53,409 bases of DNA from a virus (Duplodnaviria; Caudoviricetes): IMG/VR virus record IMGVR_UViG_3300020042_002363, positions 1 through 53,409 of that record; one strand, 5' to 3'. The position numbers and the translations under genes are program-made. Below the pieces are notes generated by a model, which worked only from the letters and a program-made list of their open reading frames with translations, was not told the DNA's origin and did not search any database. Position 1 is the first letter of the stretch. Each line of letters starts with the position of its first letter. This document shows positions 18,982 through 45,236 of this stretch, one piece after another.

Positions 18982-19281
18982 ATGGCGATTATTAAAGGTT
19001 GGCATTTTGCAAAAGGCGGTCAGGTTAACTTGACTGTTAAGCATAAAAATCCAGAGGGTGGTTTAAGTCAAGCAGGTCGTGATGCTTATAATAAAGCAAC
19101 TGGCAGTAACTTAAAGCCACCAGTCTCTAAAGAGGCTGCTGCAAAGAGTCCTGCTAAAGCTTCTCGTAGAAGTTCCTTCTGCGCTCGTATGGGTGGCATG
19201 AAAGCAAAGCTAACTTCTGCTGAGACTGCAAAAGACCCTAATTCAAGAATCAATAAAGCCTTACGCAAGTGGGATTGTTAA
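18982..19281 (+). CDS. Small basic phage protein (DUF6321-like) with N-terminal FAKGG
   Basis: KNP.GGL...GR..YN..TG.NLK.P, RR.SFCARM.G, DPNSRINKALRKW.C; GGAG RBS. Confidence 0.75.
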   Translation: MAIIKGWHFAKGGQVNLTVKHKNPEGGLSQAGRDAYNKATGSNLKPPVSKEAAAKSPAKASRRSSFCARMGGMKAKLTSAETAKDPNSRINKALRKWDC

Positions 19282-19297
19282 ACTAAAGGAAATAATC

Positions 19298-21004
19298 ATG
19301 GGCAAAAATATTAAGTATGGTGAGTTTACTTTTAGCAAACCAAAGCCTCGTCCAACTGTAAAGGGATATGCATTTGGTGGCGCTACTGAGCCAGTTGCTG
19401 AACCAATGACTGCTAAACAGCCAATGGGAATGTCACCACCATTAGTACAAAAACCCATGCAAAAACCAGTAGTGACTCCTGCTCCTCTAAGCCCTGCTAT
19501 GCAGCGTCAGCAAGAGAATCAAGCGGTTATTAATAAAGCAAATGCAAATCCCAATAGAAAAGGAAACCCGCTTCTAATTGATCCTGTTGCGATGAAAGGT
19601 GCGACTGATAGGAACATGGCGATTAGGCAAGCTACTGATGCTAGACATAGAGCAGAAGCAAAAGCAAACGCTATACCTTCTAAAAACCCATACGCTCGTA
19701 GCACCATGCCCATAGCAAGACAAAAAGGCGGCAAGGTTGGTTTGTGGGACAACATTCATGCAAAGCAAGAGCGGATTAAAGAAGGCTCTGGCGAGAAAAT
19801 GCGAAAAGCTGGCTCTAAAGGCGCTCCTTCTGCACAAGATTTCAAAAACTCCGCTAAAAAGATGCAACAAGGCGGTGAAGTAAAAGGTTATGCGGCAGGT
19901 GGTATGTATGAATTGGATGATGCACCAATTCAACGAAGAGATGCCAAAGTAAAAGCTATAAAATTAAGGTTAGCTGAAGAAGCAAAAAGAAATGCTGCTC
20001 AATCTAAAAACCGCGCTGAACAACAAATGGGTCAAGGTAAGGCAAATTTATTGCCAAGCCCTGCTAGAGCGCCAGATACTGATACCCCTAGCCAAATGAT
20101 GAAAATGCAAAAAGGTGGTGAGGTAAAGGGTTATGCGGCTGGCGGTATGTCTGCATTAACTAAAGCAAAAGCTCCAATGTCAGCTAATAAGCCAGCAATG
20201 GGTCAAATGCCATCTTATGCTCAAAACCTTGCAAACCAAACTCCAACAAGTTTGAGCGGGATGAAACTTCCACCTCCTCTTCCTATGGCGCAGCCAATGG
20301 GTGGGCAGATGGGTGCTTTAAGCAACTTGATGCGCCAATATAATCAACAGGGTATAGGTATGCAGCAACCAATGGGAAATATCCCTAATTTTGCTCAGCC
20401 TTACATGAATCAGGCTAATCAGCCAATTGGCTATCCACCTCCGCCACCTACACAGCAGCCAATGGGTGGAGTTCCTGCTTATGCTCAGCCTTTTATGAGC
20501 CAGTCAGCAACTCCTATGATGGGCGCTAATAGGTCGCCTGTGAACGCTCCTACGCAATCTGGTATGCCTCCACAAATGGCAGGTATGGGTTTAGGTATGG
20601 GCGCTAGTCTTGGTTTCAAAAAGGGCGGAGACGTTTCTAAAGGCAAGGCTAAAGCTATGGAAGCTTCAGCAAAAGATAAGTCTCAAGACAAAGCAATGAT
20701 CAAAAAGGCTATGAAGCAGCATGATCAGCAAGAGCATAAAGGCGGTAAAGGTACTGTTTTAAAGCTTAAAAATGGTGGGAAAGCTCCTGTTAAGGGCGTA
20801 AAACTAGTTGGAATGAAGCGTGAACCTCTTGCTATGGTTAAAAAAGAGGTTTCTTTGCTTAAAAAGGCTGGCGCACCAGCAAAAATGATTAAGCATGAAG
20901 AAATTGAGGCTGCTTCGCCAATGTCTTCTATGGGTGGTATGCGAAAAGGTGGCGCTGCCATGAAAAAAGGTGTTCCAACCTTTAATCGCACCCCTAAATG
21001 CTAA
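19298..21004 (+). CDS. Basic low-complexity protein built of xxxGG-delimited peptides
   Basis: 568 aa, K/M/Q/P-rich, at least 9 xxxGG motifs. Confidence 0.8.
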   Translation: MGKNIKYGEFTFSKPKPRPTVKGYAFGGATEPVAEPMTAKQPMGMSPPLVQKPMQKPVVTPAPLSPAMQRQQENQAVINKANANPNRKGNPLLIDPVAMKGATDRNMAIRQATDARHRAEAKANAIPSKNPYARSTMPIARQKGGKVGLWDNIHAKQERIKEGSGEKMRKAGSKGAPSAQDFKNSAKKMQQGGEVKGYAAGGMYELDDAPIQRRDAKVKAIKLRLAEEAKRNAAQSKNRAEQQMGQGKANLLPSPARAPDTDTPSQMMKMQKGGEVKGYAAGGMSALTKAKAPMSANKPAMGQMPSYAQNLANQTPTSLSGMKLPPPLPMAQPMGGQMGALSNLMRQYNQQGIGMQQPMGNIPNFAQPYMNQANQPIGYPPPPPTQQPMGGVPAYAQPFMSQSATPMMGANRSPVNAPTQSGMPPQMAGMGLGMGASLGFKKGGDVSKGKAKAMEASAKDKSQDKAMIKKAMKQHDQQEHKGGKGTVLKLKNGGKAPVKGVKLVGMKREPLAMVKKEVSLLKKAGAPAKMIKHEEIEAASPMSSMGGMRKGGAAMKKGVPTFNRTPKC

Positions 21005-21073
21005 TAAGTTAATTTATAATCTAGTCTCTTGAGATCGCTGTTTCAGCGAGCTGCGACTTGAAGGAGAATAAAA

Positions 21074-22060
21074 GTGGCGGTTTCTGGAACAGTTTCTCAA
21101 ACTGTATTTAATACTCGCAAAATTATTGATCATGCGTTTCGCAAATGCCGTTTGCCGCCTGAAGGGGTTGGTGGCGAGCAAATGGTTACCGCTCAAGAAA
21201 CTTTGTACCTATTGCTATCCGCTCTGGCAAACAGAGGGTTGCAGTTATGGTGCATTGAAAAGCTAATCCTTCCACTCCAACCAGCTAATGCAGAAGTCCC
21301 AGTTGGCAATGGAATTGTTGATTTACTTAATACAAATTACCGCACAGTAGAAGCTCAAACTGGTGTCACTACTGTAACAAGTAGTTCATATACAGTAAAT
21401 TTTACTAGTCCAACTTCAATATCTACAGTAGGTCTGCTTTATGGTTCTAATGTAAGCACTAATTATTTAGTTCAAACTTCTACAAACGGAACTACTTGGA
21501 CGACTCTGCTCGTAATGGATGCTGCTGGTTTAGCTAATAAGTGGACATGGAAAGACGTTCCAGTACCTATAACCACTTCATACATCAGAGTTTTTGGTTA
21601 TGGGGTAGGTTTTGCACCTGCTCAATTTGTATTTGGTAACACACCAAATGAAATACCAATGGCTCGTTTGAATCGAGACAGCTATGCAAATCTACCAAAC
21701 AAAGCATTTGAAGGTAAGCCTTTACAGTTTTGGTTAGACAGAACTCTTGATGAGCCAATCATGTACATATGGCCTGTCCCAAGCGCATCAACCGCAATAG
21801 CTCAAGTTACTACCTATGTGAAGCGTTACATCATGGATGTAGGTACATTGACTCAAGAAATTGAAGTCCCACAGCGTTGGTATGAAGCTATTGTGTATCA
21901 GTTAGCAGCAAGGTTTGCAGAAGAGCTTCCACAAGTTGACCCTTCAATGATTCCTATTATTGATCAGAAGGCTATGAGGGCGCTTAATGAAGCAGAGATG
22001 GAAGAGCGTGATAACTCTCCAATTTATTTCACTCCTAACATTGCGGTGTATACAAGATGA
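21074..22060 (+). CDS. Head-tail adaptor / tail tubular protein A-like with inserted beta domain
   Basis: II..AFR.C, NRGL.LW, Y..LPNK...G.P.QFW, IWPVP, P.RWYEAI...LA. Confidence 0.7.
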   Translation: MAVSGTVSQTVFNTRKIIDHAFRKCRLPPEGVGGEQMVTAQETLYLLLSALANRGLQLWCIEKLILPLQPANAEVPVGNGIVDLLNTNYRTVEAQTGVTTVTSSSYTVNFTSPTSISTVGLLYGSNVSTNYLVQTSTNGTTWTTLLVMDAAGLANKWTWKDVPVPITTSYIRVFGYGVGFAPAQFVFGNTPNEIPMARLNRDSYANLPNKAFEGKPLQFWLDRTLDEPIMYIWPVPSASTAIAQVTTYVKRYIMDVGTLTQEIEVPQRWYEAIVYQLAARFAEELPQVDPSMIPIIDQKAMRALNEAEMEERDNSPIYFTPNIAVYTR

Positions 22061-24311: not shown

Positions 24312-24320
24312 AAGTAAATC

Positions 24321-25921: not shown

Positions 25922-25928
25922 GAAAAAT

Positions 25929-26582: not shown

Positions 26583-26584
26583 TA

Positions 26585-29567: not shown

Positions 29568-29603
29568 ATTATTTGGCTACATTTTTAATAAAAGGATTTA
29601 ATT

Positions 29604-30267: not shown

Positions 30268-31806
30268 ATGGGACTTTTTAGTTGGGTAAGCAATGCTTGG
30301 GATGGTATTGTTGATTTTGTATCTGAATCAGCTAGTGATTTAGGCTCTGCAATTTCAGAATCATGGAAGGATGCTGGCAAAATATTAGATAAATATGTTG
30401 TTAAGCCAATTGAGAAAGACCCATGGGGTTTTATTGTTACTGCGGCGGCGGCTTCATTTGGCATACCTTATATAGTAGGTCCGGGCATGATTGCGTCAGG
30501 TATTGCAAGCACTGCTGTTTCATTAGCTCAAGGTAAAGATTTTGATGATGCATTAACTGATGGCGTTACTGCGGCTGTGTTGGACTTTGGTATTTCTGAA
30601 GGGTTCAATGTTCTTAAAGGTTCACCAAAACCATTTGGTTCTTCTGCGAACATTGGAGCGCAATTTGATTCAACACCAACATTTGAATCAATGTTTGGTG
30701 ATGCAGCTCCAACAAAAACAGTCACAAATCAATTAGATGATTCATTAAACCTTAATAAAGATTTCACATCAGCAATGCCAGAGAATCAAGTTGGTGCATT
30801 AGACTTAAATAAAGAACTTGATTTTAATCCTCAGCAGTTTGATGAAATGGCTGCATTAAGACCTGATGAAATTGCAGCTATGAATGAAGGTTCATATTTT
30901 AATGATCCTTATCCTAATGAAACATATTTAAATGATGACGGAATGTTAGGGTTTGATAGGGGTCAATATGCTGCATATACAGAACCAGCCCCAAGACTTT
31001 CAGATATATATCCAGAGCCAAAAAATTATTTAAGTGATATAAGCACAAATGAACTTGGTGCGCTTCCTGATTCTGGCACATACAAAGCGCCAATAGTGGA
31101 TATGGGAGTAGATGCAACTAAAAAAGCTGCTGACATTACTGCTGGTGATTGGTGGAAACATCCAGTAGATACACTTGGTAAATACACTGAAGACAAGATT
31201 GGTGTTGATATTACCAACCCATGGATTGTTGGTGGAGCTGGACTTGGTTTAAGTTATCTTCAAAAGAAAAAAGCTGCTGAAGAAGAAAGACGACGCAGAG
31301 AAGAGGCTGCAAGAAATGATCCATTAAATAGCCCATTGTTTACTTCTCGTTTACAACAATATAAATATGAAAGAAATAGAAATAAATACACAGGTGATCC
31401 TATAAGGTATGGTCAAAGAGACAATGTAAATCAAGGTGAATTTGCATTCTATGACCCAGCACAATTTACTCCAATAACTCCAGCCGCAACTGGTGGTCAA
31501 ATACGCGCTCCGCATTCTTACTATCAATATGGGAATGTACCTGCGTCAGTAAAAGAATATGCGCATGGCGGGTTAAATGCACTGTCTCATGGTCGCTCTG
31601 ATGATATTCCAGCAGTTCTATCTGATGGTGAGTATGTAATGGATGCTGAAACAGTTGCGTTGCTTGGCAATGGGTCAACTGATGCTGGTGCAAAACAATT
31701 AGATCGTATGCGTGAATCTTTGAGAAAGCAAAAAGGAAAAGCTTTATCTAAGGGTAAGTTTTCTCCTAATGCTAAATCTCCATTAGCTTACTTACAAAGA
31801 GGTTAA
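30268..31806 (+). CDS. Internal virion/ejection protein with C-terminal SDDIPA.LSDGEYV domain
   Basis: MGLF start with hydrophobic helices; AATGG and YAHGG motifs; tape-measure-like C-terminal domain. Confidence 0.7.
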   Translation: MGLFSWVSNAWDGIVDFVSESASDLGSAISESWKDAGKILDKYVVKPIEKDPWGFIVTAAAASFGIPYIVGPGMIASGIASTAVSLAQGKDFDDALTDGVTAAVLDFGISEGFNVLKGSPKPFGSSANIGAQFDSTPTFESMFGDAAPTKTVTNQLDDSLNLNKDFTSAMPENQVGALDLNKELDFNPQQFDEMAALRPDEIAAMNEGSYFNDPYPNETYLNDDGMLGFDRGQYAAYTEPAPRLSDIYPEPKNYLSDISTNELGALPDSGTYKAPIVDMGVDATKKAADITAGDWWKHPVDTLGKYTEDKIGVDITNPWIVGGAGLGLSYLQKKKAAEEERRRREEAARNDPLNSPLFTSRLQQYKYERNRNKYTGDPIRYGQRDNVNQGEFAFYDPAQFTPITPAATGGQIRAPHSYYQYGNVPASVKEYAHGGLNALSHGRSDDIPAVLSDGEYVMDAETVALLGNGSTDAGAKQLDRMRESLRKQKGKALSKGKFSPNAKSPLAYLQRG

Positions 31807-31808
31807 AA

Positions 31809-32813
31809 ATGGCTCTAGCAGAAATAGGAGACTTTTTATTTGGGGCTAAAGCTCCCCCATCAGTTACAACTTACGGGACTAGTACAACTACTACTCCTGC
31901 TTGGTATAACGACTACACACAAGGTTTAATTGGTAAGGCTAATGCAATTGCTGCTGAGCCATATCAACTATATACAGAGCCTCGTATTGCAGAATTTACT
32001 GACAATCAGAATCTAGCGTTTGCATTAACGCCTGAAGCTGCTGGCTCTTACATTCCTTATTTGGGTGGTGCTACTGATCTTTATAATCAACTAGGAAACA
32101 CTACTGCGTTAAGTAAAGCACAGCCTTATTTAAATAATGCATCTCAAAATAGTTATGCAAATGTACAAAATTACATGAACCCATACATGGATTCGGTTAC
32201 TAATCGAATCGGTCAAATGGCTCAGCGTAACTTGTCTGAAAACATTATTCCGCAAATTCAGAACCAATTCATTGGCGGTGGATCATTTGGTGGTAGCCGT
32301 AGTGGTACAGCTATGGGTAAAGCAATGCGTGATATATCTGCTGACACTTTAGCGCAACAAACAAGTGCATTAGCTGGTGGATACAATCAAGCAATGGCTC
32401 AAAGCGCAGCAGACCTTACAAGACAGGGACAGTTAGGTCAAATAACTGGTGCAATAGGTCAAGCAGACCTTACTAGACAGCTTCAGCTTGGACAGCAATA
32501 TGCTGGTCTTGGTGCATTGGCGCAGTCTCTTGGTCTTAATGAGGCTGCCGCATTGGAGGCTGTTGGTCTTACACAGCAAAATCAAAATCAGAGAAATCTT
32601 GATTTGGCTTACTCAGACTTTGCTGATCAGCGTGATTACGACAGAAATAATATTGCATTCTTGAATGCTGCTATTCGTGGTTTAGCTATTCCAACATCAA
32701 CATATGCAACTCAGAGTGGGCCTGCTGGTTCATACCAACCATCAGGGTTGTCGCAGCTTGCTCAAGTTGGCTCTATGATTTATGGCGGCACTAAAAAAAG
32801 CCCGGGAACTTAA
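31809..32813 (+). CDS. DNA ejection (pilot) protein
   Basis: Q/A/G-rich helices, YMNPY, G.FGGSR motif. Confidence 0.7.
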   Translation: MALAEIGDFLFGAKAPPSVTTYGTSTTTTPAWYNDYTQGLIGKANAIAAEPYQLYTEPRIAEFTDNQNLAFALTPEAAGSYIPYLGGATDLYNQLGNTTALSKAQPYLNNASQNSYANVQNYMNPYMDSVTNRIGQMAQRNLSENIIPQIQNQFIGGGSFGGSRSGTAMGKAMRDISADTLAQQTSALAGGYNQAMAQSAADLTRQGQLGQITGAIGQADLTRQLQLGQQYAGLGALAQSLGLNEAAALEAVGLTQQNQNQRNLDLAYSDFADQRDYDRNNIAFLNAAIRGLAIPTSTYATQSGPAGSYQPSGLSQLAQVGSMIYGGTKKSPGT

Positions 32814-32828: not shown

Positions 32829-35800
32829 ATGGCTAATAAACCTCGTCGGTATGACAACTTGGCTGATTTTGATTTTGAAAGCTTAATTCCTCAGCAGGGA
32901 TTAAGTAATCAGCCTGTACAAAATAATGAGTTAACTGATGATGAACTATTAGCTCTTAATCAAGGTGCTGAAGACCCAAATGCTGATTACCTAAATCAAA
33001 CTTCTGCTGGTGTTCGATTATCAGACCCAAGTGTTAACCCATCATTTGCTAATAAGGCTAGTCAAGCTGGTGAGCGATATTTAACTCAGAAAAAAGCAGA
33101 AAGAACTGCAACAGCAGAAATTTTAAAAAAAGCTCAGGAAGCTTTGCTTGCTAGATCGCAAGAAGGTTGGACTCGTGGCGATTATTTTAGACTTGCTGCT
33201 GCCCTTGGTAAACCAACAAGAACTGGTAGCTTTGGTGAAGAATTAGGCAATGCTGCTGAAGTTATGGCTGGAGTTAGTGACCGCCAAACAAAAGCTAAGC
33301 AAGACTATGAAGCATTAAAATTAAAATACCAATTGCAAAATGCATCTCAAGGTGCTGAAGATGCTGAGCAAGAATTTGGTGTGTATAGCAAACTTGCAAC
33401 TGGCAGAGGTCAATCTGCATCTAGACTGCGTCAAATGCAAATAGAGCGTGATGCGCTACCAATGAATGACCCAGCTCGTGCTGAATTAAGTGCAGCTATT
33501 GAATTAATGACTACTGAGAAGAAAACAAAAGCTAATACTCCTTCAGGTCAGTTTGTTGAATTAGTAACCATAGCTAATGATGTTAATCAGCCTAAAGAAG
33601 TTAGAGAAGCGGCTGCTGCAAAGATAAGAAAAGAAACATACATTCCTCCTCCGAAAGCACCAAAGGGTGAGCCACCTCCTGTAGTTAATTTAACTGCTGC
33701 TGAAAACACTGGTATGCGTTTAGGTGTTCCTGTCATGATTGACAGCCCATTTTCTAATGTTGATCAAAAAACTCAACAGCAATTAGTATTACAAGCAAGC
33801 AAACGTGCGCAAGCTGAAATAGCAAAAGTTGAAGAGGCAGCAGATAAGGCTCAATTTTCTCAGCAAAAGATGGCGCGTTTTCTTAAATTAAATAAAGAAA
33901 ACCCAACTAACCCTATTACTGGAAAATTACCTTCATTCAAAGCTGCTGCTCAAGAAATGGATAACATTACTGCTGAGCTTGCACCTGAAAAAAGATTAGA
34001 AGGAACTGGTTCGGTTTCTGACTTTGATGCTAAGCAGTTGCTTAAAGCGGTTGTTAACCAAAGCAATTCTTATGAGGCTAACAAAAATATTGGCTTGGCA
34101 TGGGATGCTTATGCAAAAACAATAAAAGAGAAAAGTAATTTCTTGCGTAACTACTTTACCACCAATAAAACTTTGGATGGCTCTAGTCAGGCATGGATGC
34201 GCTACATGAATGCGAATCCTATTTTTGATCCAAAGCAGCCCGGAACTTTTGCTCCTAACAAAGCTCGTAAGACTTATAAAGAATTCTTCTATCCACCAAA
34301 GCCACAACAAAAAGCTGAAGGTGGCATAGTTAATTATTCTGATGGTGGTGATGTATCTCCATACAGTAATTACTATGAACAAGAGCAGCCAGATTTATCT
34401 GTGTTGATGAATAAGTATGCTCATGGTGGTGCTGTAAATCATCCACAATATGATCAATATGGTCGTAGGAAATTTGCTAAGGCTGGAGAAGTAAAAGAAG
34501 GTTATAAATTATATTCCCCGCATAAAGCTGGTTTTCAGAATTTATTTTTTGGCATAAACGATAACTCATTAAAAGATTTAAACACTGAAGACAGGGATTA
34601 TGTAAAGCAACAGCATAAAGACTATATAGATTCTATAACAGGAAATAGAACAGGTTTTATTAGAAAAATCAATGAGCTTTTAAGAAAAGATGATTACTAC
34701 TGGATTAAAGACCCTAACTACAATCCAAATGCTAATTCATCAGGCACAGGTACAGGTACAGGCACTGGCTCTGGAACTAGTGATGGCTCAAGCACTAGCA
34801 ACAACTCTGGCAAACAATACAACCCAGTAAGTGATGTATCTAAATACGGGTACAGACCTCAGCATGATTTCTATTTGCAAAATGGGGTGTCTGATTCTGC
34901 TGCAAGTGAGGAAGAAATCTCGTCTTCTGAATCAGATACTGTTAATAACCAATCACGCAATAAAAGGGTATCTGACAATCCAGAGTGGTTTGACTATTTA
35001 TCAAACTTTGGTACTGCAACACCATCAACTTATAGAAACACCCCTAAAGAATTAGATAAATTATTATCGCAAGATTATTTGTTAGACTTTGATTTGTACG
35101 CTAAAGGCGGAGAAGTAAAAAATAAATTGTATGACAAGTATGGTCGTCAAAAATTAGGTTGGGGTGGTCTGGGTTTTCTAAGAGCATTTAAACCTACAAT
35201 AGCACCAGCACCTACACCTACACCAGAAACAAAACCAGACTTTAGTTTTTTAGATAGGGCAGACTTTGGTACAAAACCTACGCCTACGCCTACACCAACG
35301 CCAACTCCAACTCCAACACCTACACCAGTTGTTGATCCATTGCCAAAGCTTTCGGAAGAGGCTGTAATTGCTGCGACTAATTTAGGTCGTAAATATGCAA
35401 GACCTACCCAAGATTTGTATAATTATGGATCAAGAAAAGCGCATAAGTTTTTTACTGATGGACAAAATTATGCTCGTAATGATGGTTCTATTCCAGTAAC
35501 AGATGGTTCAGGTACTAACACAACAACTCCAGTAGTTGTAAAACCCACACCTACTCCTACACCTGCGCCAGCAAAAAAATGGGCATATAAAGGACAATGG
35601 AATCCAGCTATATTACCTCCTAATCAGCGTTTTTCTCATGGTGGTGTAGCCCATATGCAAGAAGGTGGAGTTCCACCAGAATCAGTCGTGCGTTTAAAGC
35701 CTATTCGTTCTTCTGACTCAGCTAACCGCGCTCGTGCTTTCTTTGGTCAAGGCATGGGTATGTCTATTGGTGATGAAGCAGAAGCTTTGTACCGTAAATA

Positions 35801-38597
35801 CTTAACTGATGAAGGCTCTAACAAGAGCTATGGTCAATTGGTTGATGAAATTCGTAGTGATTACCGTCGATTCTCTGAAGAGAACCCAGAGCAGCAAATG
35901 GCTTTTGAACTTTCTGGTGGCATAACTCCTACTGTAGGCGCAATGTTGTTGCCCGGAGGTCAGACTGCGGCTGGTGCTAATGTTGGTCGTATGGCTAACA
36001 TGTTTACAAAAACACCATTGCGCCGTGCTGCAACAGGTGCTGGAGCTTCTGGTGCTGTATCAGGATTTAATGCAGGTGAAGATACATTGTCTAATCGTTT
36101 AGGCAGTGCTACTGAGAGCGGATTAACTAGCACAGTGCTAGGCCCTGTCGTTGGTAAGGCTGGTCAACTTGCCTTGCGTGGCGGTAAGGGTGCTGTAAAC
36201 CTTGCTAAGCGCCCATTCCAGATTGGTGACAACTATCTTGAACAGCAAGCCATGGACAAGGTCTTGGAAAAAATGCGTCAAGATAACATCACACCTCGCC
36301 AAGCTCTTGGTCGTGTTGCTAATGATCGTGGATACAATCCGACTACTAGACCTGTAGGAACTCGCCCTGACACTCGCCTGATGGATGTCTCACAGGGATT
36401 GACTGACTTGGCTGAAACCGTAACACAGAGACCCGGAGGCGGTCGTACTGCTATGGTTGAGGACATGAAGAATCGTGTTCGTGGCACGAAGGGCAGAGTC
36501 ACACAAATGGCTAATGAGGCTCTAGCAGGTAACAAGGCTTACTTCAAAGAAGTAACCGACTTGACAAAAGACTTACGCTCAAAGGCTGATACTGCTTACC
36601 AAGCTGCATATTCTTTTGGTGATGTATCTGACCCAAGAATTATGGGTATTTTAGATACGCCAGAGTTTAAACGTGCTTATCAAGAAATAATGAAGACTAA
36701 TCAAATCAAGAAGGCTAATGCGGTTGCATTAGGTCAAGACCCTTCACAGTTTGATATGAAGCAGATTTATCGAGTCAAGCCCGGACAAAATCCTGACAGC
36801 CCTATTCTTGATTTAGAGTTGACTGATGTTCCTGATGTTAGGACTTTGGACAACATCAAGCAAGGTATTGACACTGTTATTGCTAAAGGATTTGCAAGCG
36901 ATGACAAGATTAGCCGAGATGCAGCTAATGCTCTCAAGCAACTGAAGAACACTTATGTAAGCATTCTTGATGATGCAGTACCTGCATATAAAGTTGCGCG
37001 CAATCAATACAAGGGCGACATTGAGATTATTGAGGCATTAGAAACTGGTCGTAATCAGTATTCAAAAATGTTACCTGATGAAGCAATGCAATATGTTTCT
37101 ACATTAAGTGATGCTGAAAAACAGGCTTTACGTGTTGGCTATGCTCAAAACTTTGCTACCAAGATTGGTGAGTCTAAGAACTCAATCAATGCTGCTGAGC
37201 AGATAATTGGTGCTGAGAATGAGCGTCTACGTTTAAGAGCATTGTTTGGCTCTGATGCTGAATACAAAGTATTTGAAAATGCTTTGATGGCTGAGTCTCG
37301 CAACTTTAGAAATGCAGGTCAAGTGGTAGCAAATTCTGCTACCGAGCGCCGTGCTATGGGTCGTAAAGAGTTTGAAAACAATGATGCTGTTGGTGAAATA
37401 CTCGATGCTACTCGTGGCGGTGTAACTAGCACTGTACTCAGCATTTTGCGTAAAGCTCCATCACTGTTTAAGAATGAAAAAATAGCTGAGAAAGTAAGCA
37501 AGATTCTTTCTACTGGCACACCACAAGAAATCAATTCCATTCTTAGACAAATGGAAAAACGTGCTGTTGGTTTCTCTAAATCCGCAAAGACTAAAGAGCG
37601 TGTTGGTTATGCAGGTGCTAAAGCTACTGGCAGGGCATCAGGTCAAACTCCTATTGCAGCTTCATATGAAGAACCAGCTCCAGAGGAACTTCCATCAGCA
37701 ATTGACCCAAGCTCTGAGGGTGCATTAGACCCATCTGAAAGTGTTGTTTTTGATTCTCCAGAAATAGAACCTCAAGACACAGAAGAGCCAGAGCAGGTAG
37801 AAGTTCCAATGGAGCAGCAACGATATGGTGGCGGTCTTGTCCGTAAATTTGCTGATGGTGGCTATGCTGAATTTACACCTGAGAAAATTGCTGAGCATTC
37901 AAAAATGCTTGAATACCAAAAAATGCGTCGTAAACAGGCTGATGACTATTTAAAGCAGGTATATGACAGGCGTGCAAAAACTCAATCTAGAAGCCCTGTA
38001 GGTGGAGTAGGTGGTGGTGCTGCTATTGGTCACATGAGTGATCCAAGCTCAGTTAAATCCCTAATCCCTAACTTTGCTGAAGGTGGTTCTGCTAGAGAAG
38101 CTAATTATGTATCAGACATTTTAGACAGAGTTGATGTTAGTGCTTATGCTGATCAAATGCAGCAAGGTAAAAACAGAAGTAAGTTTATGATGGGTAGGCT
38201 TGGATATCGTCAACCACTTGCAGATAACAGACAATTATCTGGTGGCTTATCTGGTAGTGCTGTTGAATATGAGGGTGAGGATAATCGAGGCAATAAATAT
38301 CAGGGCGGCAAATCTGGTTTGACAGGCGCTGATTTAGCTTATGAAGATGAAAAGAACCGTCTGGCTGTTAAGTATACAACTCCACAAAGAGAGAATAATT
38401 TAGCATTCCAAGGTGTTGAGTATGCTCGTAAGCTTGCAAATAACAAAGGGACTGTTGGTGGTCGTTATTCTAGAATTTCTCCAGAGGGAATTCGTCGTGA
38501 ACCACAAGCAGAGCTTTTCTATAACAAGCAATTTAAATCTGGTGGTGCTGTAAAAAAGAATGCTATGAAAAATGTAATGCGTAAAATGGCTAAATAA
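32829..38597 (+). CDS. Giant modular internal virion protein (1922 aa)
   Basis: Two ejection-protein-like helical blocks, low-complexity linkers, about 12 xxxGG motifs, C-terminal beta-strand module. Confidence 0.8.
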   Translation: MANKPRRYDNLADFDFESLIPQQGLSNQPVQNNELTDDELLALNQGAEDPNADYLNQTSAGVRLSDPSVNPSFANKASQAGERYLTQKKAERTATAEILKKAQEALLARSQEGWTRGDYFRLAAALGKPTRTGSFGEELGNAAEVMAGVSDRQTKAKQDYEALKLKYQLQNASQGAEDAEQEFGVYSKLATGRGQSASRLRQMQIERDALPMNDPARAELSAAIELMTTEKKTKANTPSGQFVELVTIANDVNQPKEVREAAAAKIRKETYIPPPKAPKGEPPPVVNLTAAENTGMRLGVPVMIDSPFSNVDQKTQQQLVLQASKRAQAEIAKVEEAADKAQFSQQKMARFLKLNKENPTNPITGKLPSFKAAAQEMDNITAELAPEKRLEGTGSVSDFDAKQLLKAVVNQSNSYEANKNIGLAWDAYAKTIKEKSNFLRNYFTTNKTLDGSSQAWMRYMNANPIFDPKQPGTFAPNKARKTYKEFFYPPKPQQKAEGGIVNYSDGGDVSPYSNYYEQEQPDLSVLMNKYAHGGAVNHPQYDQYGRRKFAKAGEVKEGYKLYSPHKAGFQNLFFGINDNSLKDLNTEDRDYVKQQHKDYIDSITGNRTGFIRKINELLRKDDYYWIKDPNYNPNANSSGTGTGTGTGSGTSDGSSTSNNSGKQYNPVSDVSKYGYRPQHDFYLQNGVSDSAASEEEISSSESDTVNNQSRNKRVSDNPEWFDYLSNFGTATPSTYRNTPKELDKLLSQDYLLDFDLYAKGGEVKNKLYDKYGRQKLGWGGLGFLRAFKPTIAPAPTPTPETKPDFSFLDRADFGTKPTPTPTPTPTPTPTPTPVVDPLPKLSEEAVIAATNLGRKYARPTQDLYNYGSRKAHKFFTDGQNYARNDGSIPVTDGSGTNTTTPVVVKPTPTPTPAPAKKWAYKGQWNPAILPPNQRFSHGGVAHMQEGGVPPESVVRLKPIRSSDSANRARAFFGQGMGMSIGDEAEALYRKYLTDEGSNKSYGQLVDEIRSDYRRFSEENPEQQMAFELSGGITPTVGAMLLPGGQTAAGANVGRMANMFTKTPLRRAATGAGASGAVSGFNAGEDTLSNRLGSATESGLTSTVLGPVVGKAGQLALRGGKGAVNLAKRPFQIGDNYLEQQAMDKVLEKMRQDNITPRQALGRVANDRGYNPTTRPVGTRPDTRLMDVSQGLTDLAETVTQRPGGGRTAMVEDMKNRVRGTKGRVTQMANEALAGNKAYFKEVTDLTKDLRSKADTAYQAAYSFGDVSDPRIMGILDTPEFKRAYQEIMKTNQIKKANAVALGQDPSQFDMKQIYRVKPGQNPDSPILDLELTDVPDVRTLDNIKQGIDTVIAKGFASDDKISRDAANALKQLKNTYVSILDDAVPAYKVARNQYKGDIEIIEALETGRNQYSKMLPDEAMQYVSTLSDAEKQALRVGYAQNFATKIGESKNSINAAEQIIGAENERLRLRALFGSDAEYKVFENALMAESRNFRNAGQVVANSATERRAMGRKEFENNDAVGEILDATRGGVTSTVLSILRKAPSLFKNEKIAEKVSKILSTGTPQEINSILRQMEKRAVGFSKSAKTKERVGYAGAKATGRASGQTPIAASYEEPAPEELPSAIDPSSEGALDPSESVVFDSPEIEPQDTEEPEQVEVPMEQQRYGGGLVRKFADGGYAEFTPEKIAEHSKMLEYQKMRRKQADDYLKQVYDRRAKTQSRSPVGGVGGGAAIGHMSDPSSVKSLIPNFAEGGSAREANYVSDILDRVDVSAYADQMQQGKNRSKFMMGRLGYRQPLADNRQLSGGLSGSAVEYEGEDNRGNKYQGGKSGLTGADLAYEDEKNRLAVKYTTPQRENNLAFQGVEYARKLANNKGTVGGRYSRISPEGIRREPQAELFYNKQFKSGGAVKKNAMKNVMRKMAK
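35278..35327 (+). repeat. Pro-Thr linker repeat
   Basis: (PT)n with mixed synonymous codons. Confidence 0.8.
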
Positions 38598-38606
38598 GGA
38601 ATAGAC

Positions 38607-41600
38607 ATGGCTACTAAAAAAATTAGCGTTCAGTCACCATTCCTTGCCAGCCGAGTTACTAAAGATCATTTAACTAGAAATTCTGCACTAGATTCTGCTG
38701 CTATGGCTAAAAGGAATTTATCAGATCAGTATTTAAAGTTTAAAAATATAAGACCTTCTCAGTTTAAAGGTGATCCATATTCATATGGATATAAAAAAGC
38801 TGAAAATTTTTATGATAATTCTTCTACACCTTTATCTAAAGTAATCACACCAGATAGAGAAATGACATATGCGCCAGTTACTATTAATAATGTAGCAAAG
38901 GTTGGTGCTGATGATATTAATCAGTACACCTCTGGTGCTTTCAAATCTATTGAACCTCAATATGGAGAAATAGCTCCTAACAGGCAGTTAAATAAAAATG
39001 TGTTTGAAAACTACTCCATAAGATTTGGTAAGGGTGGAGTAGCTAAAAAGGCGATTGCAGAGATTCAAGGAATACTGTCAAGACTTCCAAAAGGTTCTGC
39101 TGCATCTCAGACAAAAGTTGCTAGTGAATTGGAACAGGCTGCTGCTGAGAAAGCAGCTCTTTATACTGTTGAAAAGCAATCAACAGAAAAAGGTAATAAA
39201 GCATTAGCTAAGGCTAAGCAAACATTATCTGAGCCAAAATCCAAGAAGCCATTGACGAAGGAGCAATTCCAAAACCAATACGTTCAGCACATTGACCTTA
39301 GAGGCAGAGAAGGCAATGCTGAAGAAAACGCTAAGTCAATAATGGAAAGTGGATTTAGACGCGGTGTAAATGCTAATGCATACACTCCATTCAGCGGTCT
39401 ACCTCATAGAGATGTTGTGAGTGCAAAGTTCCAACCTCAAGAGGGTGATTTTGTTTACTTAGCTCCAAAGGGGCAGTGGGTAACAACACCTAATGGTGTG
39501 AAAATAAAAGAAGGATTTAAACCAGAGCCTCATGAGGTTATCAGAGTTACTGATCCTAATATGTCAATGTATGAGCATTACTTAGCTAATTTTGACAAAA
39601 CAAAAAAAACAAACAAACAAAAATTTCTTGAAGAAGAAAAACATCCATCTATTCCTGATGTTTTGTATCACGGAACAAAGCGTGAATTTTCTGCATTCCA
39701 ACCTAAATATGATGATGGATTGTCTTTCTTTTCAACTAACCCAGAATTTGCAGGTAAGTGGCCTCAAGGTTCTGGTGGTCTAAGAGCAAACTCTGCTGAA
39801 AATGAAGCTCACTATGAAGAACTTAGAAAACTAGAAGAGCAGTTGAGTAATAAGTATAGAGAAGAAATACCTAGTTATGATGATCCAAACTGGGCTGAAA
39901 AATTTGATGCAGCTAGAGAAAAAATAAAACAAGAGATGCGTGAAAAAACTGGTTTTAGCACTGCTTCTGAATATGATAGCAAAGCAGGAATTCAAATAAT
40001 GCCAGTTCATTTAGCGATCAAAAAACCATTTGATCCTCGTACTGATTATCAAGAAGTTGAAGAGTTATTAAAAAACATGAAGGGAATGGATGGCGTTGTT
40101 GAAAATGGATTGCATAAAACTGGTAACTGGATTGTTTATGAAAGACCAGAGGTTGTTAACCATTTAAAAAGCAAGGGCTATGATGGTATGTGGTTAAGTG
40201 AGAATGTAAACGGCCCTCATGAAACTATAGCTCCATTTGATTCAAAGCAGATAAAGTCAGCCATAGGTAACCGTGGCACATACGACATCAACGAAGCAGA
40301 CATCACTAAAGCACATGGTGGGGTTGTACACATGGGTAAAGGTGGTTTATTAAAAATGGTTAGCAAACAACTTGAAAAATCTCTTGTTAAAACGCCAAAA
40401 AAACAAATAGAAGCACCAACCATAATTATCCCAAGCAAACTTTCTGAGGTTGAAAAATATGTCAGAGGTCGTGAAGGTTCATATGGTGCTGATCGTGTGC
40501 AGTATGCTGCTGATCAAATTAAAAATCTTGAGCGTCAATATACGGAGCAAGGATTGAAAGAAGCTTTTAGTGGTGATAATGCCAGAGCCTTAATGATTGG
40601 CAATCCTGCTAAATTCCAAGATTATGCTGATCGTATAGAAAGGCCTTCTAAAGGCGGTATAGCTGAATACAAATATTTCATGTCGGATGAAGGCGGTGGA
40701 GCTGATGATGTCCCATTCCTTCTTTTAGATAGAGAAACAGGAGAAATTCCTTATGTTGCAGGTCATGAGGGTCGCCATAGAAATTTAGCTTTAGAAGAAT
40801 TGGGTGATGATAAAACATTATGGAGAATGCTTCCTAGAGCTGCTTTGCGTGAACATTTGCCACGTAGAAGCCAAGAAGAATATCTCGATGCGTTAGTCAA
40901 AGAGATTGGTAACCCTGCTGAAGTTAGCCCAGAAGAACGAAAGGGGGTACTGGTAAGAACATTACCCAAGATGTTTCTAAAGGGCGGGTTAGCTCATCTC
41001 GCTAAAGGTGGAGTAGCTCACATGGCTGAAGGCGGTCAAGAATTCCCATTAAAAAGAGCTGCTAATGTAACTGAAGCTGATATGACTCCAACTGAAGTTA
41101 ATCCATTGGCTGGTACAGCTTCTCGTTTATTGGCAAAGGGTAATCAGTATTTAACTAAACCATTTGGGTATGAAAATCCTCCAATGGAATTTGTTACTGA
41201 TTTACTTGGTGTTCCTGATTGGATTAAAACTTTAGAAAACAAAGCATATGGCACTCCAAACTATAGTGGGTCAGGTCAAGCCACAAGATTAAATGAAGAA
41301 GCGGTTGATCCTTTATTGTCATTAATACCAGTTGTTGGCTATACCGCTAAAGTAGGTAAGAAGCTGGCTAAAAAGGCTGCTCCATATGCTGCTAATCAAG
41401 CAGTCAATCTAATGGAGAAGTATGGCGTTAGCCCAAATATGTATGTTGTTAAGCCTAAAGGCGGCAACTGGATGGATGTGGATAAAACTGTAAAAGCTTT
41501 TAAAATTAGAAGGCCTACTGATCATGCAACACCAGAAAAAGTTTTAGAAGCTCATGATAAATATTGGAATCCTTCATTGATGTCAACAATGACAGAAGAA

Positions 41601-44600
41601 GGTGCTGCTCGTATAAGAAGTGGTAGACAAAATATTGTTAATCAAATCAAAGTAAATAATTGGATTGATAAAAAGTTAGGCAATTACATCAAAAATGAAC
41701 TAGCCACACCTGAAGACTCAGTCCGTTTAGGTATGGAGCGTAGAGTTGAGCAAGCGAAAAAAACAAAAACAGATAATGATGCAAAGCTTGCCAAGATGAA
41801 GGAAGCAATTGATAAGCGCAAGGCTGAAGGTAAAGACACAACTTTATCTGAGCGAGATTATGAAACAGCAATAGAAAAAGCTGATGAAGAGAATTTGTTT
41901 GCAAATAGAAGTGTTTCTCATTTAACTGCGCCTGAAGAAGGTTGGGCATTGAATTTATACAAGGATGATTATTATCCAAATCAAGCCTCAATTAATAAAA
42001 GAATAGAGGCTGGTTATCCAGAAGAAGGAATGTCAACAAATAATCAAGCCTCTAAGCTTTGGGAGGATGTATCAGATTATCTTGTTGAGTCTCGTACAGC
42101 AAATTCAATTCCTGATGATTCTTATATGATGAAAGACAATCCTTGGATTTCTAAGGTTGCTGATAAAGACCCAAACACACCAATATATTCTGTTAATGCA
42201 AATGATTTAAATACGGAATTAGAGTTTAGGCACATGGTTGATGAACTTCAAGAGGCGATGAGTCCTACTTCTGTGTTGCCTCAAAATTTAAGAATAAGTG
42301 AAAAAGATTTAGAAAAGATGACAGTTGATGATGTGTCTGCATTATCTGGCAAGATTACTGCATGGCGCGCGGCTCAAAAAGTAAAATCAAATAAAGACAT
42401 TGCTAATAACCCAGCAATGCATACATTTAAAGAGTACACAGAAAACAATCCTAAAGGTGTTAAATGGCAGCAGATTAAACGCCCTGAAGGTTATTCTCGT
42501 GAAGAGCAAGAACAATTTGTTCGTGAAGCCACTAAATATGAAGGCGACTTAATGCGTCATTGTGTTGGTGGTGCTGGACATTGTGAACCATTATTAAATG
42601 GTGAGGTAGAGATTTATACATTGCGTGATGCTAAAGGCGAGCCTCATGTAACTATTGAGGTTGATAATGGTGCTAATGCTCCAACTTTTTACGAAAGAAA
42701 TCGTGAATTACTTGAATACCCTGAAATAGCTGATGAACATCAATTAATAAATGATACTGCTGAAAATTCAGCAGAATATATAAGAAGAGTTACTAGACTA
42801 TTAGATGAGAATGGCTATAAAGAAGGTGAGGATTATTTTATTCCAAAACCAAAAGCACCAAGCATTCGTGAGATTAAAGGTAAGGGAAATCAAAAACCTA
42901 ATGATGAATACATTCCATTTGTTCAAGACTTTATTCGTTCAGGTCAATGGGATGAAATTGATGATGTTAAGAACACTGGGATGAAATATGCACAAGATGC
43001 TCTTGGTATTGATACTTATCGTGCATTGAAAGCAAAAGGTATTGATGTTCCACAGCTTATAACTTCAGAAGATGCAATGAAGTTTGAAGAAATGCTTGAT
43101 CCAAATTATTTTAATAATCCTAAATTTACTAGAGAGGATTACATTGATAATTTCAATCAAACATATGCAGAAGGTGGCTTAGTTGATGGTGATGATAACT
43201 TGATGTCATTAGTTGATGAACACTTTTTAAATCAGCCAATAGCTTTTGGTCTTGGCGGTGTAGCTAAAAAAATAGCTGGTAAAGTTGTAAAGAGTTTAGA
43301 AGGTCAATTAGATGACTCTGTTGAAAAACTTCTTGATGCTCATACTGCTGCAAAAGCAAAGCCAAAATCTAAAGCTAAATCAAATCCTGATGATAAGTTT
43401 TTACCTTTAGATTTGCCTAGAGCGCGTCGTAGCAAACAAGAAATTCAAAGTGAAGCAGAACGAGTTTCCCGTCAAATGATGGGTGAGCATGTTCGTGATC
43501 CTAGAAAACCAAATGATTCTGCAAACCTTGCTGATAGATCAATGGCAGAGGTTGAAAGATTAAAAGGAATTAATTACACCTTAGAGGACATAAAAGACCT
43601 ACCAGAGCCAATTATTATTGATCCTAAATTAGGTGACATTAACATAGCCACTGTTGGTGATATTACTGTTGCTGACAAACGATTAGTTGATATGAATGGC
43701 TACCCAATTGATTCAGTCCAACAGGGTGGCCCATTTTTTGGTTTAGGCAAACTTCACCAAATAGCTGATGAGGATTTATGGTGGGCTTCTGAACACCAAG
43801 CTGCTAAAAACTTTCAAGCAAGAGTAGATGAGATAGCTAATCATTTTGGAGTTGATAGGCTAACAGCTCAACATTATGCGATGGGTCAAAGAGCTAATAA
43901 CTTTGCTATGCATTTTGCTGATGCCAACCTAAAAGCGATCAATACTTTCGGTGCGCCAGAAGAAGGCATTGAAGGCATGAATAAATTAATTCGTGAAGGC
44001 TACTCATTAGCAGACAAAAAAACAGGAGAAAGAAAATACTTTGCATGGCCTGATTTCCCCGGAGTTGAAAACATTGATGAGGCTTATGTATATTTTAGAA
44101 AAGACCCAGAGGCTAGAAAGTGGTTCAACGACCGCATGAAAAAGCCAACAGTGACAGACAAGTTTGGTCTTCCAAATGGGTTGGACATTCAATATGCAAT
44201 CAGTGATGAAGTTCTTCGCAACATGGAAAAAAATCTAACTGGTCGTTCAGTTGGAGAGGTTTATAGAGGCTCAGGATTAAAAGATACTGCCAATCATGGA
44301 ACATATGACACAGGCATCAAGGGTAGGTTTCTTGGTAGATCAAAATACCCAACACCTGTAAAACTTAGTTACTCTGATGCATATGACTACACAGCAGCTA
44401 GAAAGCGCCCAAGTGATGTAACTGGCACTTTGCAAAAAGTAGCCCCTCATCAAATTGTTGATGATCAGTATTTAAATGAAATTGGGGAGTTTAACTACTT
44501 AATCAATAAATACACTGGCAAGCGCAAGGGCGGCTTAGTTGATGATGACAAAGAATTAAGCCAAGAATATTCTGCCATACAAAGATTGCTTGGCAGGTAT

Positions 44601-45236
44601 GCATACACCTTGGACAAGCACAAAAGGTACAAGAGCGAAAAATACTCTGGCAAGGATGATGAGGTTGTTTCTCGTCGCAAGCCTTTTGATGAAATGACTG
44701 TACCGATGCCCGGAGACTTTAGGGGTAACACAATCAAGACTCCTTTTGGCGAAAGATATAAGGATGACGAGTACAAACAAAACAATATGCCAGAGACTAA
44801 TGAGGATGATATTCAGCGCAAGAAGGAGCTGCGGTACTACCAGAAGGGTGGCAGAACTACTGCCAAAGACCGTGTTAGGCGCAAAATGTATGACCTTGAT
44901 GCTGATGAGCCAAGTCGCATGGGAATTGCCCCCTATGGCTTGCGATATGCCCTCTCAGCAAGAGAAATGCCACAAGCCAAGGGTAAGGGCTACATGGGTG
45001 AAATGCGTGGCTCTGAGGGGGTTGTGACGGAATATTCTTTGGATGACATGGATTTGGGTGCTTTCCCAAGTGTTACACCTAACCAGCCAAATGAAAACCT
45101 TGATGAAATCAATCGAGGTAAGGTAAGTCATAGCACATATCAGTTAGCAAAAAAGTATGCTGCCATGCGTAAAAAAGCTGGGAAGAGCGCATTTGCCCAA
45201 ATGGACGAATTACGCTATCCCCAGCCACAAGATTGA
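38607..45236 (+). CDS. Giant polyvalent protein (2209 aa) with ART-like, ParB-like and PcfJ-like modules
   Basis: YHGT..GYDG..QIKSAIGNRGTYD; GHEGRHR; EG..MRHCVG..IYTLRD..GEPHVTIE..EIKGKGN; about 11 xxxGG motifs. Confidence 0.8.
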   Translation: MATKKISVQSPFLASRVTKDHLTRNSALDSAAMAKRNLSDQYLKFKNIRPSQFKGDPYSYGYKKAENFYDNSSTPLSKVITPDREMTYAPVTINNVAKVGADDINQYTSGAFKSIEPQYGEIAPNRQLNKNVFENYSIRFGKGGVAKKAIAEIQGILSRLPKGSAASQTKVASELEQAAAEKAALYTVEKQSTEKGNKALAKAKQTLSEPKSKKPLTKEQFQNQYVQHIDLRGREGNAEENAKSIMESGFRRGVNANAYTPFSGLPHRDVVSAKFQPQEGDFVYLAPKGQWVTTPNGVKIKEGFKPEPHEVIRVTDPNMSMYEHYLANFDKTKKTNKQKFLEEEKHPSIPDVLYHGTKREFSAFQPKYDDGLSFFSTNPEFAGKWPQGSGGLRANSAENEAHYEELRKLEEQLSNKYREEIPSYDDPNWAEKFDAAREKIKQEMREKTGFSTASEYDSKAGIQIMPVHLAIKKPFDPRTDYQEVEELLKNMKGMDGVVENGLHKTGNWIVYERPEVVNHLKSKGYDGMWLSENVNGPHETIAPFDSKQIKSAIGNRGTYDINEADITKAHGGVVHMGKGGLLKMVSKQLEKSLVKTPKKQIEAPTIIIPSKLSEVEKYVRGREGSYGADRVQYAADQIKNLERQYTEQGLKEAFSGDNARALMIGNPAKFQDYADRIERPSKGGIAEYKYFMSDEGGGADDVPFLLLDRETGEIPYVAGHEGRHRNLALEELGDDKTLWRMLPRAALREHLPRRSQEEYLDALVKEIGNPAEVSPEERKGVLVRTLPKMFLKGGLAHLAKGGVAHMAEGGQEFPLKRAANVTEADMTPTEVNPLAGTASRLLAKGNQYLTKPFGYENPPMEFVTDLLGVPDWIKTLENKAYGTPNYSGSGQATRLNEEAVDPLLSLIPVVGYTAKVGKKLAKKAAPYAANQAVNLMEKYGVSPNMYVVKPKGGNWMDVDKTVKAFKIRRPTDHATPEKVLEAHDKYWNPSLMSTMTEEGAARIRSGRQNIVNQIKVNNWIDKKLGNYIKNELATPEDSVRLGMERRVEQAKKTKTDNDAKLAKMKEAIDKRKAEGKDTTLSERDYETAIEKADEENLFANRSVSHLTAPEEGWALNLYKDDYYPNQASINKRIEAGYPEEGMSTNNQASKLWEDVSDYLVESRTANSIPDDSYMMKDNPWISKVADKDPNTPIYSVNANDLNTELEFRHMVDELQEAMSPTSVLPQNLRISEKDLEKMTVDDVSALSGKITAWRAAQKVKSNKDIANNPAMHTFKEYTENNPKGVKWQQIKRPEGYSREEQEQFVREATKYEGDLMRHCVGGAGHCEPLLNGEVEIYTLRDAKGEPHVTIEVDNGANAPTFYERNRELLEYPEIADEHQLINDTAENSAEYIRRVTRLLDENGYKEGEDYFIPKPKAPSIREIKGKGNQKPNDEYIPFVQDFIRSGQWDEIDDVKNTGMKYAQDALGIDTYRALKAKGIDVPQLITSEDAMKFEEMLDPNYFNNPKFTREDYIDNFNQTYAEGGLVDGDDNLMSLVDEHFLNQPIAFGLGGVAKKIAGKVVKSLEGQLDDSVEKLLDAHTAAKAKPKSKAKSNPDDKFLPLDLPRARRSKQEIQSEAERVSRQMMGEHVRDPRKPNDSANLADRSMAEVERLKGINYTLEDIKDLPEPIIIDPKLGDINIATVGDITVADKRLVDMNGYPIDSVQQGGPFFGLGKLHQIADEDLWWASEHQAAKNFQARVDEIANHFGVDRLTAQHYAMGQRANNFAMHFADANLKAINTFGAPEEGIEGMNKLIREGYSLADKKTGERKYFAWPDFPGVENIDEAYVYFRKDPEARKWFNDRMKKPTVTDKFGLPNGLDIQYAISDEVLRNMEKNLTGRSVGEVYRGSGLKDTANHGTYDTGIKGRFLGRSKYPTPVKLSYSDAYDYTAARKRPSDVTGTLQKVAPHQIVDDQYLNEIGEFNYLINKYTGKRKGGLVDDDKELSQEYSAIQRLLGRYAYTLDKHKRYKSEKYSGKDDEVVSRRKPFDEMTVPMPGDFRGNTIKTPFGERYKDDEYKQNNMPETNEDDIQRKKELRYYQKGGRTTAKDRVRRKMYDLDADEPSRMGIAPYGLRYALSAREMPQAKGKGYMGEMRGSEGVVTEYSLDDMDLGAFPSVTPNQPNENLDEINRGKVSHSTYQLAKKYAAMRKKAGKSAFAQMDELRYPQPQD

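Follow-up and report, generated by a model that had tools for sequence, protein, structure and literature searches.

The virus record IMGVR_UViG_3300020042_002363, analysed here over its full 53,409 bp (hereafter the window), encodes several late proteins that are punctuated by a short di-glycine peptide of consensus G-[MYF]-A-x-G-G-x-V, and this motif recurs at the joints and C-termini of large modular proteins throughout a group of related phages. The window is a complete viral genome with direct terminal repeats, that of a podophage whose family is large and mostly uncultured. The reading that we favor, to which we assign a probability of roughly 40%, is that the motif is a multivalent docking tag that would incorporate cargo into the phage head, its internal copies having been inherited from cassettes that became fused. 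Judging from where the copies fall, the tag most likely serves packaging rather than cutting, and the giant proteins that bear it are probably carried in the head. An earlier note had picked out the motif in five virion-region open reading frames (ORFs), which it took to encode cargo polyproteins whose motif directs cleavage and/or encapsidation.

Scored with the pattern of that note, [FYMLK]xxGG, the five ORFs (5314 amino acids, aa) hold 33 copies. When the residues were permuted within the same five ORFs for 2000 rounds the count was 9.2±3.0 (maximum 20), with no round reaching 33, and the other 38 ORFs of the window (10,527 aa) hold 20 copies; the motif is thus as abundant in these ORFs as the note had claimed, exceeding shuffled sequence and denser than elsewhere in the window. 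For the stricter [FYM]xxGG the five ORFs have 24 copies versus 3.73±1.88 after shuffling (maximum 11; 0/2000 rounds reach 24) and the other 38 ORFs have 12, and [FYM][AGQSKLR]xGGx[VAI] occurs 16 times versus 0.37±0.61 after shuffling and twice in the other ORFs. Most of the copies originally listed are members, with the exception of FAKAG, which has no GG, and KPKGG (aa 949), which is invariant in the folded PcfJ-like core described below; AATGG, LGWGG and RYGGG fit poorly. The five motif proteins stand, and to them must be added a sixth that had been overlooked, the ejection protein (31809-32813), with a motif-like MIYGG seven residues before its stop codon. Tandem copies spaced 8-9 aa apart, also claimed in the note, are found at aa 495/503 and 935/943 of the 1922-aa protein and at aa 568/576 and 790/798/806 of the 2209-aa protein. 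Because the glycine codons (GGT, GGC, GGA and GGG mixed) and the flanking codons vary between copies, which have on average 10.6 of 21 nucleotides (nt) in common, conservation acts at the protein level, again as proposed.

Since the five ORFs had been chosen after inspection, and the comparison is to that extent biased by selection, the enrichment test was repeated on independent sequences. A search of a viral contig collection with an alignment of the PcfJ-like core returned 384 relatives, of which 80 loci were kept. In these, the 82 PcfJ-like cargo ORFs average 3.05 motifs per 1000 aa, versus 0.47 in a 179-aa head-module protein (p179), 0.35 in portal, 0.28 in scaffold, 0.21 in terL and 0 in GroES, and every one of the 82 cargo ORFs has at least one copy of G-[MYF]-A-x-G-G-x-V. 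The 212 unique instances define a consensus of G, then M, Y or F (38, 31 and 30%), A (58%), E/K/D, G, G, A/L/V and V (62%), the most frequent distance between neighboring motifs being eight residues (31 pairs). This consensus recurs among homologs at 25-50% identity whose linkers otherwise vary. Hence enrichment over the rest of the proteome, a check that the earlier note had suggested, is observed. The cultured phages Caulobacter phage RW, pelagiphage HTVC023P and roseophage CRP-901 have the head module in common with the window but only 1-3 motif copies, located in ejection proteins, and are poor models for motif arrays.

The proteins that carry the motif belong to a known class. Polyvalent proteins, as presented in the searched text of Iyer et al. 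2017 (PMC5512222), are very large proteins with unrelated effector modules (ART-PolyVal, PcfJ-like, LPD) in a string, whose genes lie among those for the virion and which are proposed to reach the host together with the DNA; module strings among virion genes are likewise what the window contains. With its ART-PolyVal domain and PcfJ-like core, the 2209-aa protein falls in this class, since it combines at least two unrelated effector-type domains in one polypeptide and its gene ends the late operon of a complete viral genome. Its aa 947-1481 align with an annotated PcfJ-like protein of Phage DSL-LC04 (tblastn, E 3e-49), and the core also aligns with homologs bearing PF14284. By their module content, both of the window's giant proteins are polyvalent proteins of the ART-PolyVal and PcfJ-like type, so that the modular cargo nature proposed in the earlier note holds up, as an instance of a class already described, whereas its polyprotein cleavage is not supported, no peptidase family being found in 39 ORFs.

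Motifs lie where one module gives way to another, and it is at the motif that modules have been exchanged. When the 2209-aa protein is compared with that of an 85%-identical phage, the alignment begins at aa 147, two residues past the GG of the first motif; similarity is absent over aa 386-791, which hold the ART and possibly ParB-like modules, and resumes within the triple motif, at aa 792 (in the relative, aa 351). The 1922-aa protein has, relative to the same phage, an additional segment at aa 555-748 with duplicated motif-bearing stretches on both flanks. Among 64 shorter, distant homologs that were aligned, the same modules appear in changed order, and their joints are marked by one or two motifs. 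P0122, for example, has the module corresponding to aa 1599-1978 first, followed by a motif at 429 and then by the module of aa 800-1583. Only 48 of 202 motifs in the 64 homologs lie within conserved alignment interiors, which hold 55% of residues, giving 1.44 motifs per 1000 aa in interiors versus 5.74 elsewhere (binomial P 5e-20, a value that is overstated as the sequences are related). The earlier note's placement of the motif at module boundaries is therefore supported by breakpoints, homolog alignments and, as described below, a structural model, and the proposed comparison of motif positions with domain boundaries and module swaps in related phages comes out in its favor.

The coincidence of breakpoints and motifs could in principle mean that the motif is an evolutionary by-product, a linker that persists where cassettes recombine and has no function of its own. 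We consider this very improbable, given that the nucleotide identity between copies is no more than the peptide imposes, that 15 bases are too short for homologous exchange and that the peptide is kept across homologs at 25-50% identity while the adjacent linker residues are not.

An AlphaFold2 (AF2) model of aa 440-1600 of the 2209-aa protein, built from a 59-row alignment, contains a single confident fold, at aa ~949-1525, which YAEGG (1520) closes. Coil with a predicted local distance difference test score (pLDDT) below 50 is what the model shows for FGLGG (1547) and for the double (568/576) and triple (790/798/806) copies; these placements apply outside the ART region, which is itself poorly modeled. 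That the copies all fall in low-confidence, non-globular segments, together with the symmetry of the pattern about the GG turn, its sharp eight-residue period and the existence of one basic disordered protein with 6-12 copies, lends some appeal to the idea of a structural sticker. Each copy would form a beta-turn hairpin unit with its hydrophobic residues on one face, tandem eight-residue units would make a small sheet, and association with itself or with DNA would condense the cargo and the lysine-rich protein with no folded receptor. We nonetheless find this quite unlikely: AF2 predicts coil, hairpins and self-association are seen in no model, and stickiness alone leaves the C-terminal preference of the motif unexplained.

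This preference is pronounced. Among cargo ORFs with a complete C-terminus, 68 of 78 have a motif in the last 50 residues, compared with 6 of 241 labelled head or tail ORFs and 15 of 280 unlabelled ORFs, and these C-terminal copies stand 7-45 residues from the cargo C-terminus. In its usual form the tag consists of the motif, 0-10 residues, [Y/F][D/N]P, a short amphipathic helix and the stop (alignment A6), and in a second form it is an array of 3-5 motifs ending ~8 residues before the stop. Split cargo genes (L039, L040) retain a C-terminal motif in both of their halves. A profile built from the C-terminal tag (i-E≤0.01) matched 50 domains, all in cargo ORFs, as well as aa 527-543 of the window's 1922-aa protein, 35 of these 51 matches being C-terminal and 16 internal, and it had no match among ~860 other ORFs. 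Copies near the N-terminus are rare, the first one lying within 60 residues of the first Met in only 6 of 82 cargo ORFs. Among named phages, Phage DSL-LC04 has a standalone PcfJ-like protein with three copies in its first 60 residues and further copies in its ejection proteins, and HTVC023P gp83 and RW GP066c each have a copy at the end.

We therefore favor a docking tag over a cleavage site, because copies so near the C-terminus, their retention in both halves of split genes and the arrays at protein ends suit a binding function better. In the mechanism that we propose, the tag would mark proteins that are carried within the head and exit it together with the DNA. The C-terminal copy, usually with its short amphipathic helix, and the linker copies would bind a head component during procapsid assembly and so enclose the protein, several copies providing avidity, and the lysine-rich disordered protein with 6-12 copies (the 568-aa ORF) would serve this system as a multivalent matrix. 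The copies found internally, at joints, would descend from the tags of cassettes that were once separate and then fused end to end. Such an origin would account for the coincidence of joints, recombination breakpoints and motifs and for the way in which a new effector can be added together with its own tag. The encapsidation half of the earlier proposal is thus the one that fits better, given the C-terminal copies, the split genes and DSL-LC04, while the cleavage half is disfavored by the missing peptidase, the want of a shared capsid propeptide and the hydrophobic residue at P5, each of which is taken up below.

Cleavage deserves full consideration even though we judge it unlikely. Here the motifs would be proteolytic sites, and the giant and lysine-rich proteins polyproteins that a phage or host protease cuts after or within GG, before or after injection, to release modules and small basic peptides. 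The motifs do stand exactly at joints, with 0-4 residues between them and the start of conservation in DUF6321 and in a 45-aa mini-domain, and one of the unassigned modules or a host enzyme could supply the protease. GG-X sites serve in core maturation of adenovirus and African swine fever virus, and like these and the ubiquitin-like sites the motif has a glycine pair after a hydrophobic residue, sometimes in basic core proteins. Sites of the adenain and ubiquitin type, however, take the hydrophobic residue at P4, as (M/L/I)-x-G-G, whereas in the motif it stands at P5, with Ala at P4 in 58% of the 212 instances and a strongly conserved Val at P2'. Cuts at the near-C-terminal copies of 68 of 78 ORFs and of each split-gene half would moreover free only tiny peptides. 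Double-glycine leaders, which are N-terminal and served by a C39 peptidase/ABC exporter, differ in position from a motif that is internal or C-terminal, and no C39 peptidase or ABC gene was found in the 39 scanned ORFs.

The search for a protease among the window's own genes points the same way. Pfam returned no peptidase family in 39 window ORFs at E≤0.01, nor any CE-clan protease at this threshold, although several giant-protein modules and small ORFs have no assigned fold, and HExxH is absent from the window ORFs save for one HEGRH in the possibly ParB-like stretch. The searched text of PMC5512222 proposes autoproteolytic release of modules and expects embedded zincin peptidases in polyvalent proteins, of which none was found here; for phage phiRIO-1, the text consulted reports neither processing nor a protease (PMC4819975). 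Capsid relatives start at the equivalent of residue ~43-46 of the window's capsid ORF, and so no capsid propeptide is held in common with them. The 308-aa protein is acidic, coiled-coil and scaffold-like, and the head module looks scaffold-based. The p179 protein, which has no protease-like fold match, is noted in its own right for near-invariant His61, Asp72 and His130 and a long C-terminal helix (10598-11137, + strand; no family). These residues had raised the suspicion of a lysostaphin-like (LAS) metallopeptidase, which was dropped in the absence of a profile or fold match: its profile had no match among PDB sequences, its AF2 model (pLDDT 70.8) had no Foldseek match at E≤0.001, and a wide VIA fold search with the model gave a best Z of 4.8, for the long helix only. 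The neighboring 186-aa protein (p186; 11187-11747, +) belongs to no family, and its profile matched none of the solved-structure sequences.

A further reading takes the motif as a mimic of the GroES mobile loop that would recruit host GroEL to fold the giant proteins. It draws on a superficial likeness, GG followed by hydrophobics, to the loop of E. coli GroES, and on the family-wide presence of a GroES-like gene in the head module (window 9221-9646). The phage's own GroES loop, SGLYIP, is without GG, just one hydrophobic after the GG of the motif is well conserved and the best-conserved positions precede it, which leaves this the most remote of the explanations weighed here. The GroES/Cpn10-like gene itself (+ strand) occupies the portal-scaffold interval across the family, including RW, DSL-LC04, HTVC023P and CRP-901, with 26 GroES-like ORFs in the 80 loci.

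Several observations weigh against a docking tag. Ten of the 78 cargo ORFs have no C-terminal copy, and the window's 2209-aa protein is among them. The capsid protein contains one conserved look-alike (YQAGGVL) within its fold, with 20 motif matches in 21 capsid-like ORFs, and because of it the pattern alone is insufficient to define the motif. Copies placed 0-4 residues before the N-termini of small domains resemble cleavage sites and leave scant room for a receptor, and the P-values given above overstate independence because the compared sequences are related. Finally, both the receptor and the presence of cargo proteins in the virion are predictions. A complex prediction pairing the capsid protein (15-row alignment) with a 46-residue triple-motif peptide gave no answer (score 0.00) and is evidence neither way. 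As to other candidate partners, the tag resembles by eye the conserved C-terminal 'SPER..AL' of the scaffold, which had suggested mimicry; hhalign aligned the same stretch at only 0.8% probability and the idea was set aside.

Short peptides that direct cargo into protein shells are known from other systems. The capsid targeting sequence of phage T4 brings otherwise unrelated proteins into the prohead, can be transferred to foreign cargo, and is single, N-terminal and removed by the prohead protease. The motif is like it in being a short peptide signal on unrelated cargo, and differs in being mostly C-terminal or internal, multi-copy and accompanied by no protease that we could find. Encapsulin cargo-loading peptides are C-terminal and tie cargo to the inner face of a shell that has the HK97 fold, as phage capsids do, and CsoS2 of carboxysomes is a basic, disordered protein whose many short repeats link cargo to shell. 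As in these, the motif is a short C-terminal or repeated glycine/hydrophobic peptide in disordered regions, a short conserved peptide at the cargo C-terminus as in encapsulins being found in 68 of 78 ORFs, and the 568-aa family is CsoS2-like; the motif has no sequence relation to either, and its binding to a capsid protein is drawn by analogy only. A broader picture, which we regard as speculative and improbable, is that the motif is a portable address code of a large aquatic podophage family, that the lysine-rich protein with 6-12 copies is a cargo-shell matrix in the manner of CsoS2, and that polyvalent proteins grow by fusion of tagged cassettes.

While the cargo class is known, we found no published description of the motif itself, to the extent that supplementary alignments do not already show it: 'glycine' and 'linker' each occur zero times in the searched text of PMC5512222, whose deposited alignments could display the motif. 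How phages choose the proteins that they pack and inject is known in only a few model phages. Were the docking tag confirmed, a signal common to uncultured phages by the hundred, of which a single scan returned 384 relatives, would make cargo predictable from sequence, would explain the cassette-wise addition of anti-host effectors and would provide a small tag with which foreign proteins could be loaded into phage heads. Should it instead prove a cleavage site, it would point to an unrecognized maturation protease in a phage group apparently without one.

Table 1. Motif-bearing proteins, their modules and the head module in the window (positions in nt unless given as aa of the protein named).
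Feature	Position	Strand	Details
Head module (portal, GroES-like, 308-aa scaffold-like, 179-aa and 186-aa unknowns, capsid)	6262..12803	+	Candidate tag receptors
DUF6321 protein	18982..19281	+	Pfam PF19846, E 6.5e-25; 88 bits vs cut-off 28.5, aa 25-101 of ORF 18970-19281
DUF6321 motif FAKGG	19006-19026	+	9 residues from likely ATG start
568-aa K/M/P/Q-rich low-complexity protein	19298..21004	+	8 motifs: nt 19367, 19862, 19889, 20105, 20132, 20615, 20765, 20939
45-aa mini-domain of 568-aa protein	aa 146-190, nt 19733-19867	+	phrog_16028 match aa 146-188; motifs either side
512-aa internal protein	30268..31806	+	One motif, YAHGG, nt 31558-31578, before conserved C-terminal block; phrog_13338 over aa 427-463
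Ejection protein	31809..32813	+	phrog_4287 'DNA ejection protein', E 1.1e-14; motif-like MIYGG 7 residues before stop
1922-aa internal protein	32829..38597	+	Motifs nt 34311+34335 (pair), 34416, 35097, 35631+35655 (pair), 37848, 38073, 38532
2209-aa polyvalent protein	38607..45236	+	Motifs nt 39024, 40308+40332 (pair), 40974+40998+41022 (triple), 43164, 43245, 44520, 44838
ART-PolyVal of 2209-aa protein	aa 452-558	+	Pfam E 3e-15, 57.6 bits vs cut-off 31.2
ParB-like stretch (possible) of 2209-aa protein	aa ~590-790	+	Reading of sequence by eye, no tool match
PcfJ-like core of 2209-aa protein	aa ~949-1525	+	Weak Pfam match, 18.9 bits, under cut-off 25
Conserved module of 2209-aa protein	aa ~1590-1990	+	tblastn module limits
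Triple tandem motif FLKGG-LAKGG-MAEGG, 8-aa period	40974..41042	+	Joint where similarity to relative restarts

The features of the window are collected in Table 1. The DUF6321 ORF probably starts at the ATG at 18982. Of 120 longer DUF6321 proteins, at least 12 have the same motif just ahead of the domain, at a distance of 2-4 residues, and P0100 (1881 aa) has it on both sides. The 568-aa protein, whose final motif is 16 aa from the C-terminus, is a homolog of the lysine/methionine/proline/glycine-rich proteins of 270-380 aa that many relatives encode 3' of the capsid gene, with 6-12 motifs and a C-terminal cysteine, and the two have a conserved central block in common. A search of a representative library with the 568-aa protein gave 1402 matches at E≤0.001, the mini-domain lying behind most of the best 150 of the 1402. 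This 45-aa basic mini-domain (GLWDNIHAK...) is very widespread, both as standalone proteins of 56-100 aa and as a module in proteins of up to 1253 aa. Among 134 unrelated carriers, a GG stands within 8 residues upstream of it in 18 of 119 and a motif within 22 residues downstream in 8 of 103. Because it flanks these domains in a minority of carriers, the motif is a lineage-specific punctuation rather than part of the mini-domain or of DUF6321. The 568-aa protein (20999-21001), its relatives and DUF6321 proteins (19276-19278) have a cysteine at or very near the end (...AC, ...KC, ...WDC).

Positional equivalents of the 512-aa protein in Caulobacter phage RW and Phage DSL-LC04 likewise have motifs near their C-termini, and the block 3' of its motif (DDIPAxLSDGEYVxDAETV..., 31558-31806) is common to P0191 and RW GP066c, internal proteins of other phages, and belongs to no assigned family. 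In the 1922-aa protein the motif at nt 38532 is 16 aa from the C-terminus, and distant standalone homologs of its conserved module, aa 972-1576, are without the motif (P0188-P0190, P0192). Low-complexity linkers (SGTGTGTG, TPTPTPTP) adjoin motif copies of this protein at aa 636-650, 795-833 and 904-913, so that the phage uses two kinds of linker. The conserved module at aa 1590-1990 of the 2209-aa protein matched just unnamed viral clusters in the ESM Atlas (0.85).

The motif genes lie in a long plus-strand late operon that begins with the small and large terminases, portal and the GroES-like gene and continues with the 308-aa scaffold-like protein, p179, p186 and the capsid protein. After the capsid come glycine-rich fibre-like proteins, the DUF6321 protein and the 568-aa protein, and the 3' part holds adaptor, tail and lysozyme genes followed by the 512-aa, ejection (phrog_4287), 1922-aa and 2209-aa proteins. 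Its capsid protein has 82% identity with the counterparts in Caulobacter phages RW, GB2A, RLK and KcrB and ~40% identity with those in roseophage CRP-901, pelagiphage HTVC023P and Phage DSL-LC04. A megablast search of a phage collection with a 12.5-kb query gave no match. As listed, the capsid ORF (11760-12803, +) begins 45 codons upstream of the start of all relatives (MAAPMRSTDF...), which places the probable true start close to nt 11890.

The usual order in the 80 loci is terL, a cargo protein of 600-2300 aa, portal, GroES, scaffold, p179, p186 and capsid. The polyvalent cargo gene thus occupies the slot between terL and portal in most relatives (L013-L089), where other genes carry LPD23, ART-PolyVal and DUF7178, a position that we count in favor of the docking tag. 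Only in the window and in L011 and L012, its closest relatives, is the gene shifted to the end of the ejection-protein cluster. Two glycine-rich proteins of the late operon, of 304 aa (15939-16853, +; 32% glycine with long G runs) and 670 aa (13927-15939, +; repeated GGGSVT and NGGxLGT units), are probably fibre or decoration proteins, and their GG pairs are compositional and bear no relation to the motif. Elsewhere the window encodes a 2OG-Fe(II) oxygenase (1683-2408, +), a RusA-type resolvase (50640-50993, +) and a C-5 cytosine DNA methylase (51854-53227, +).

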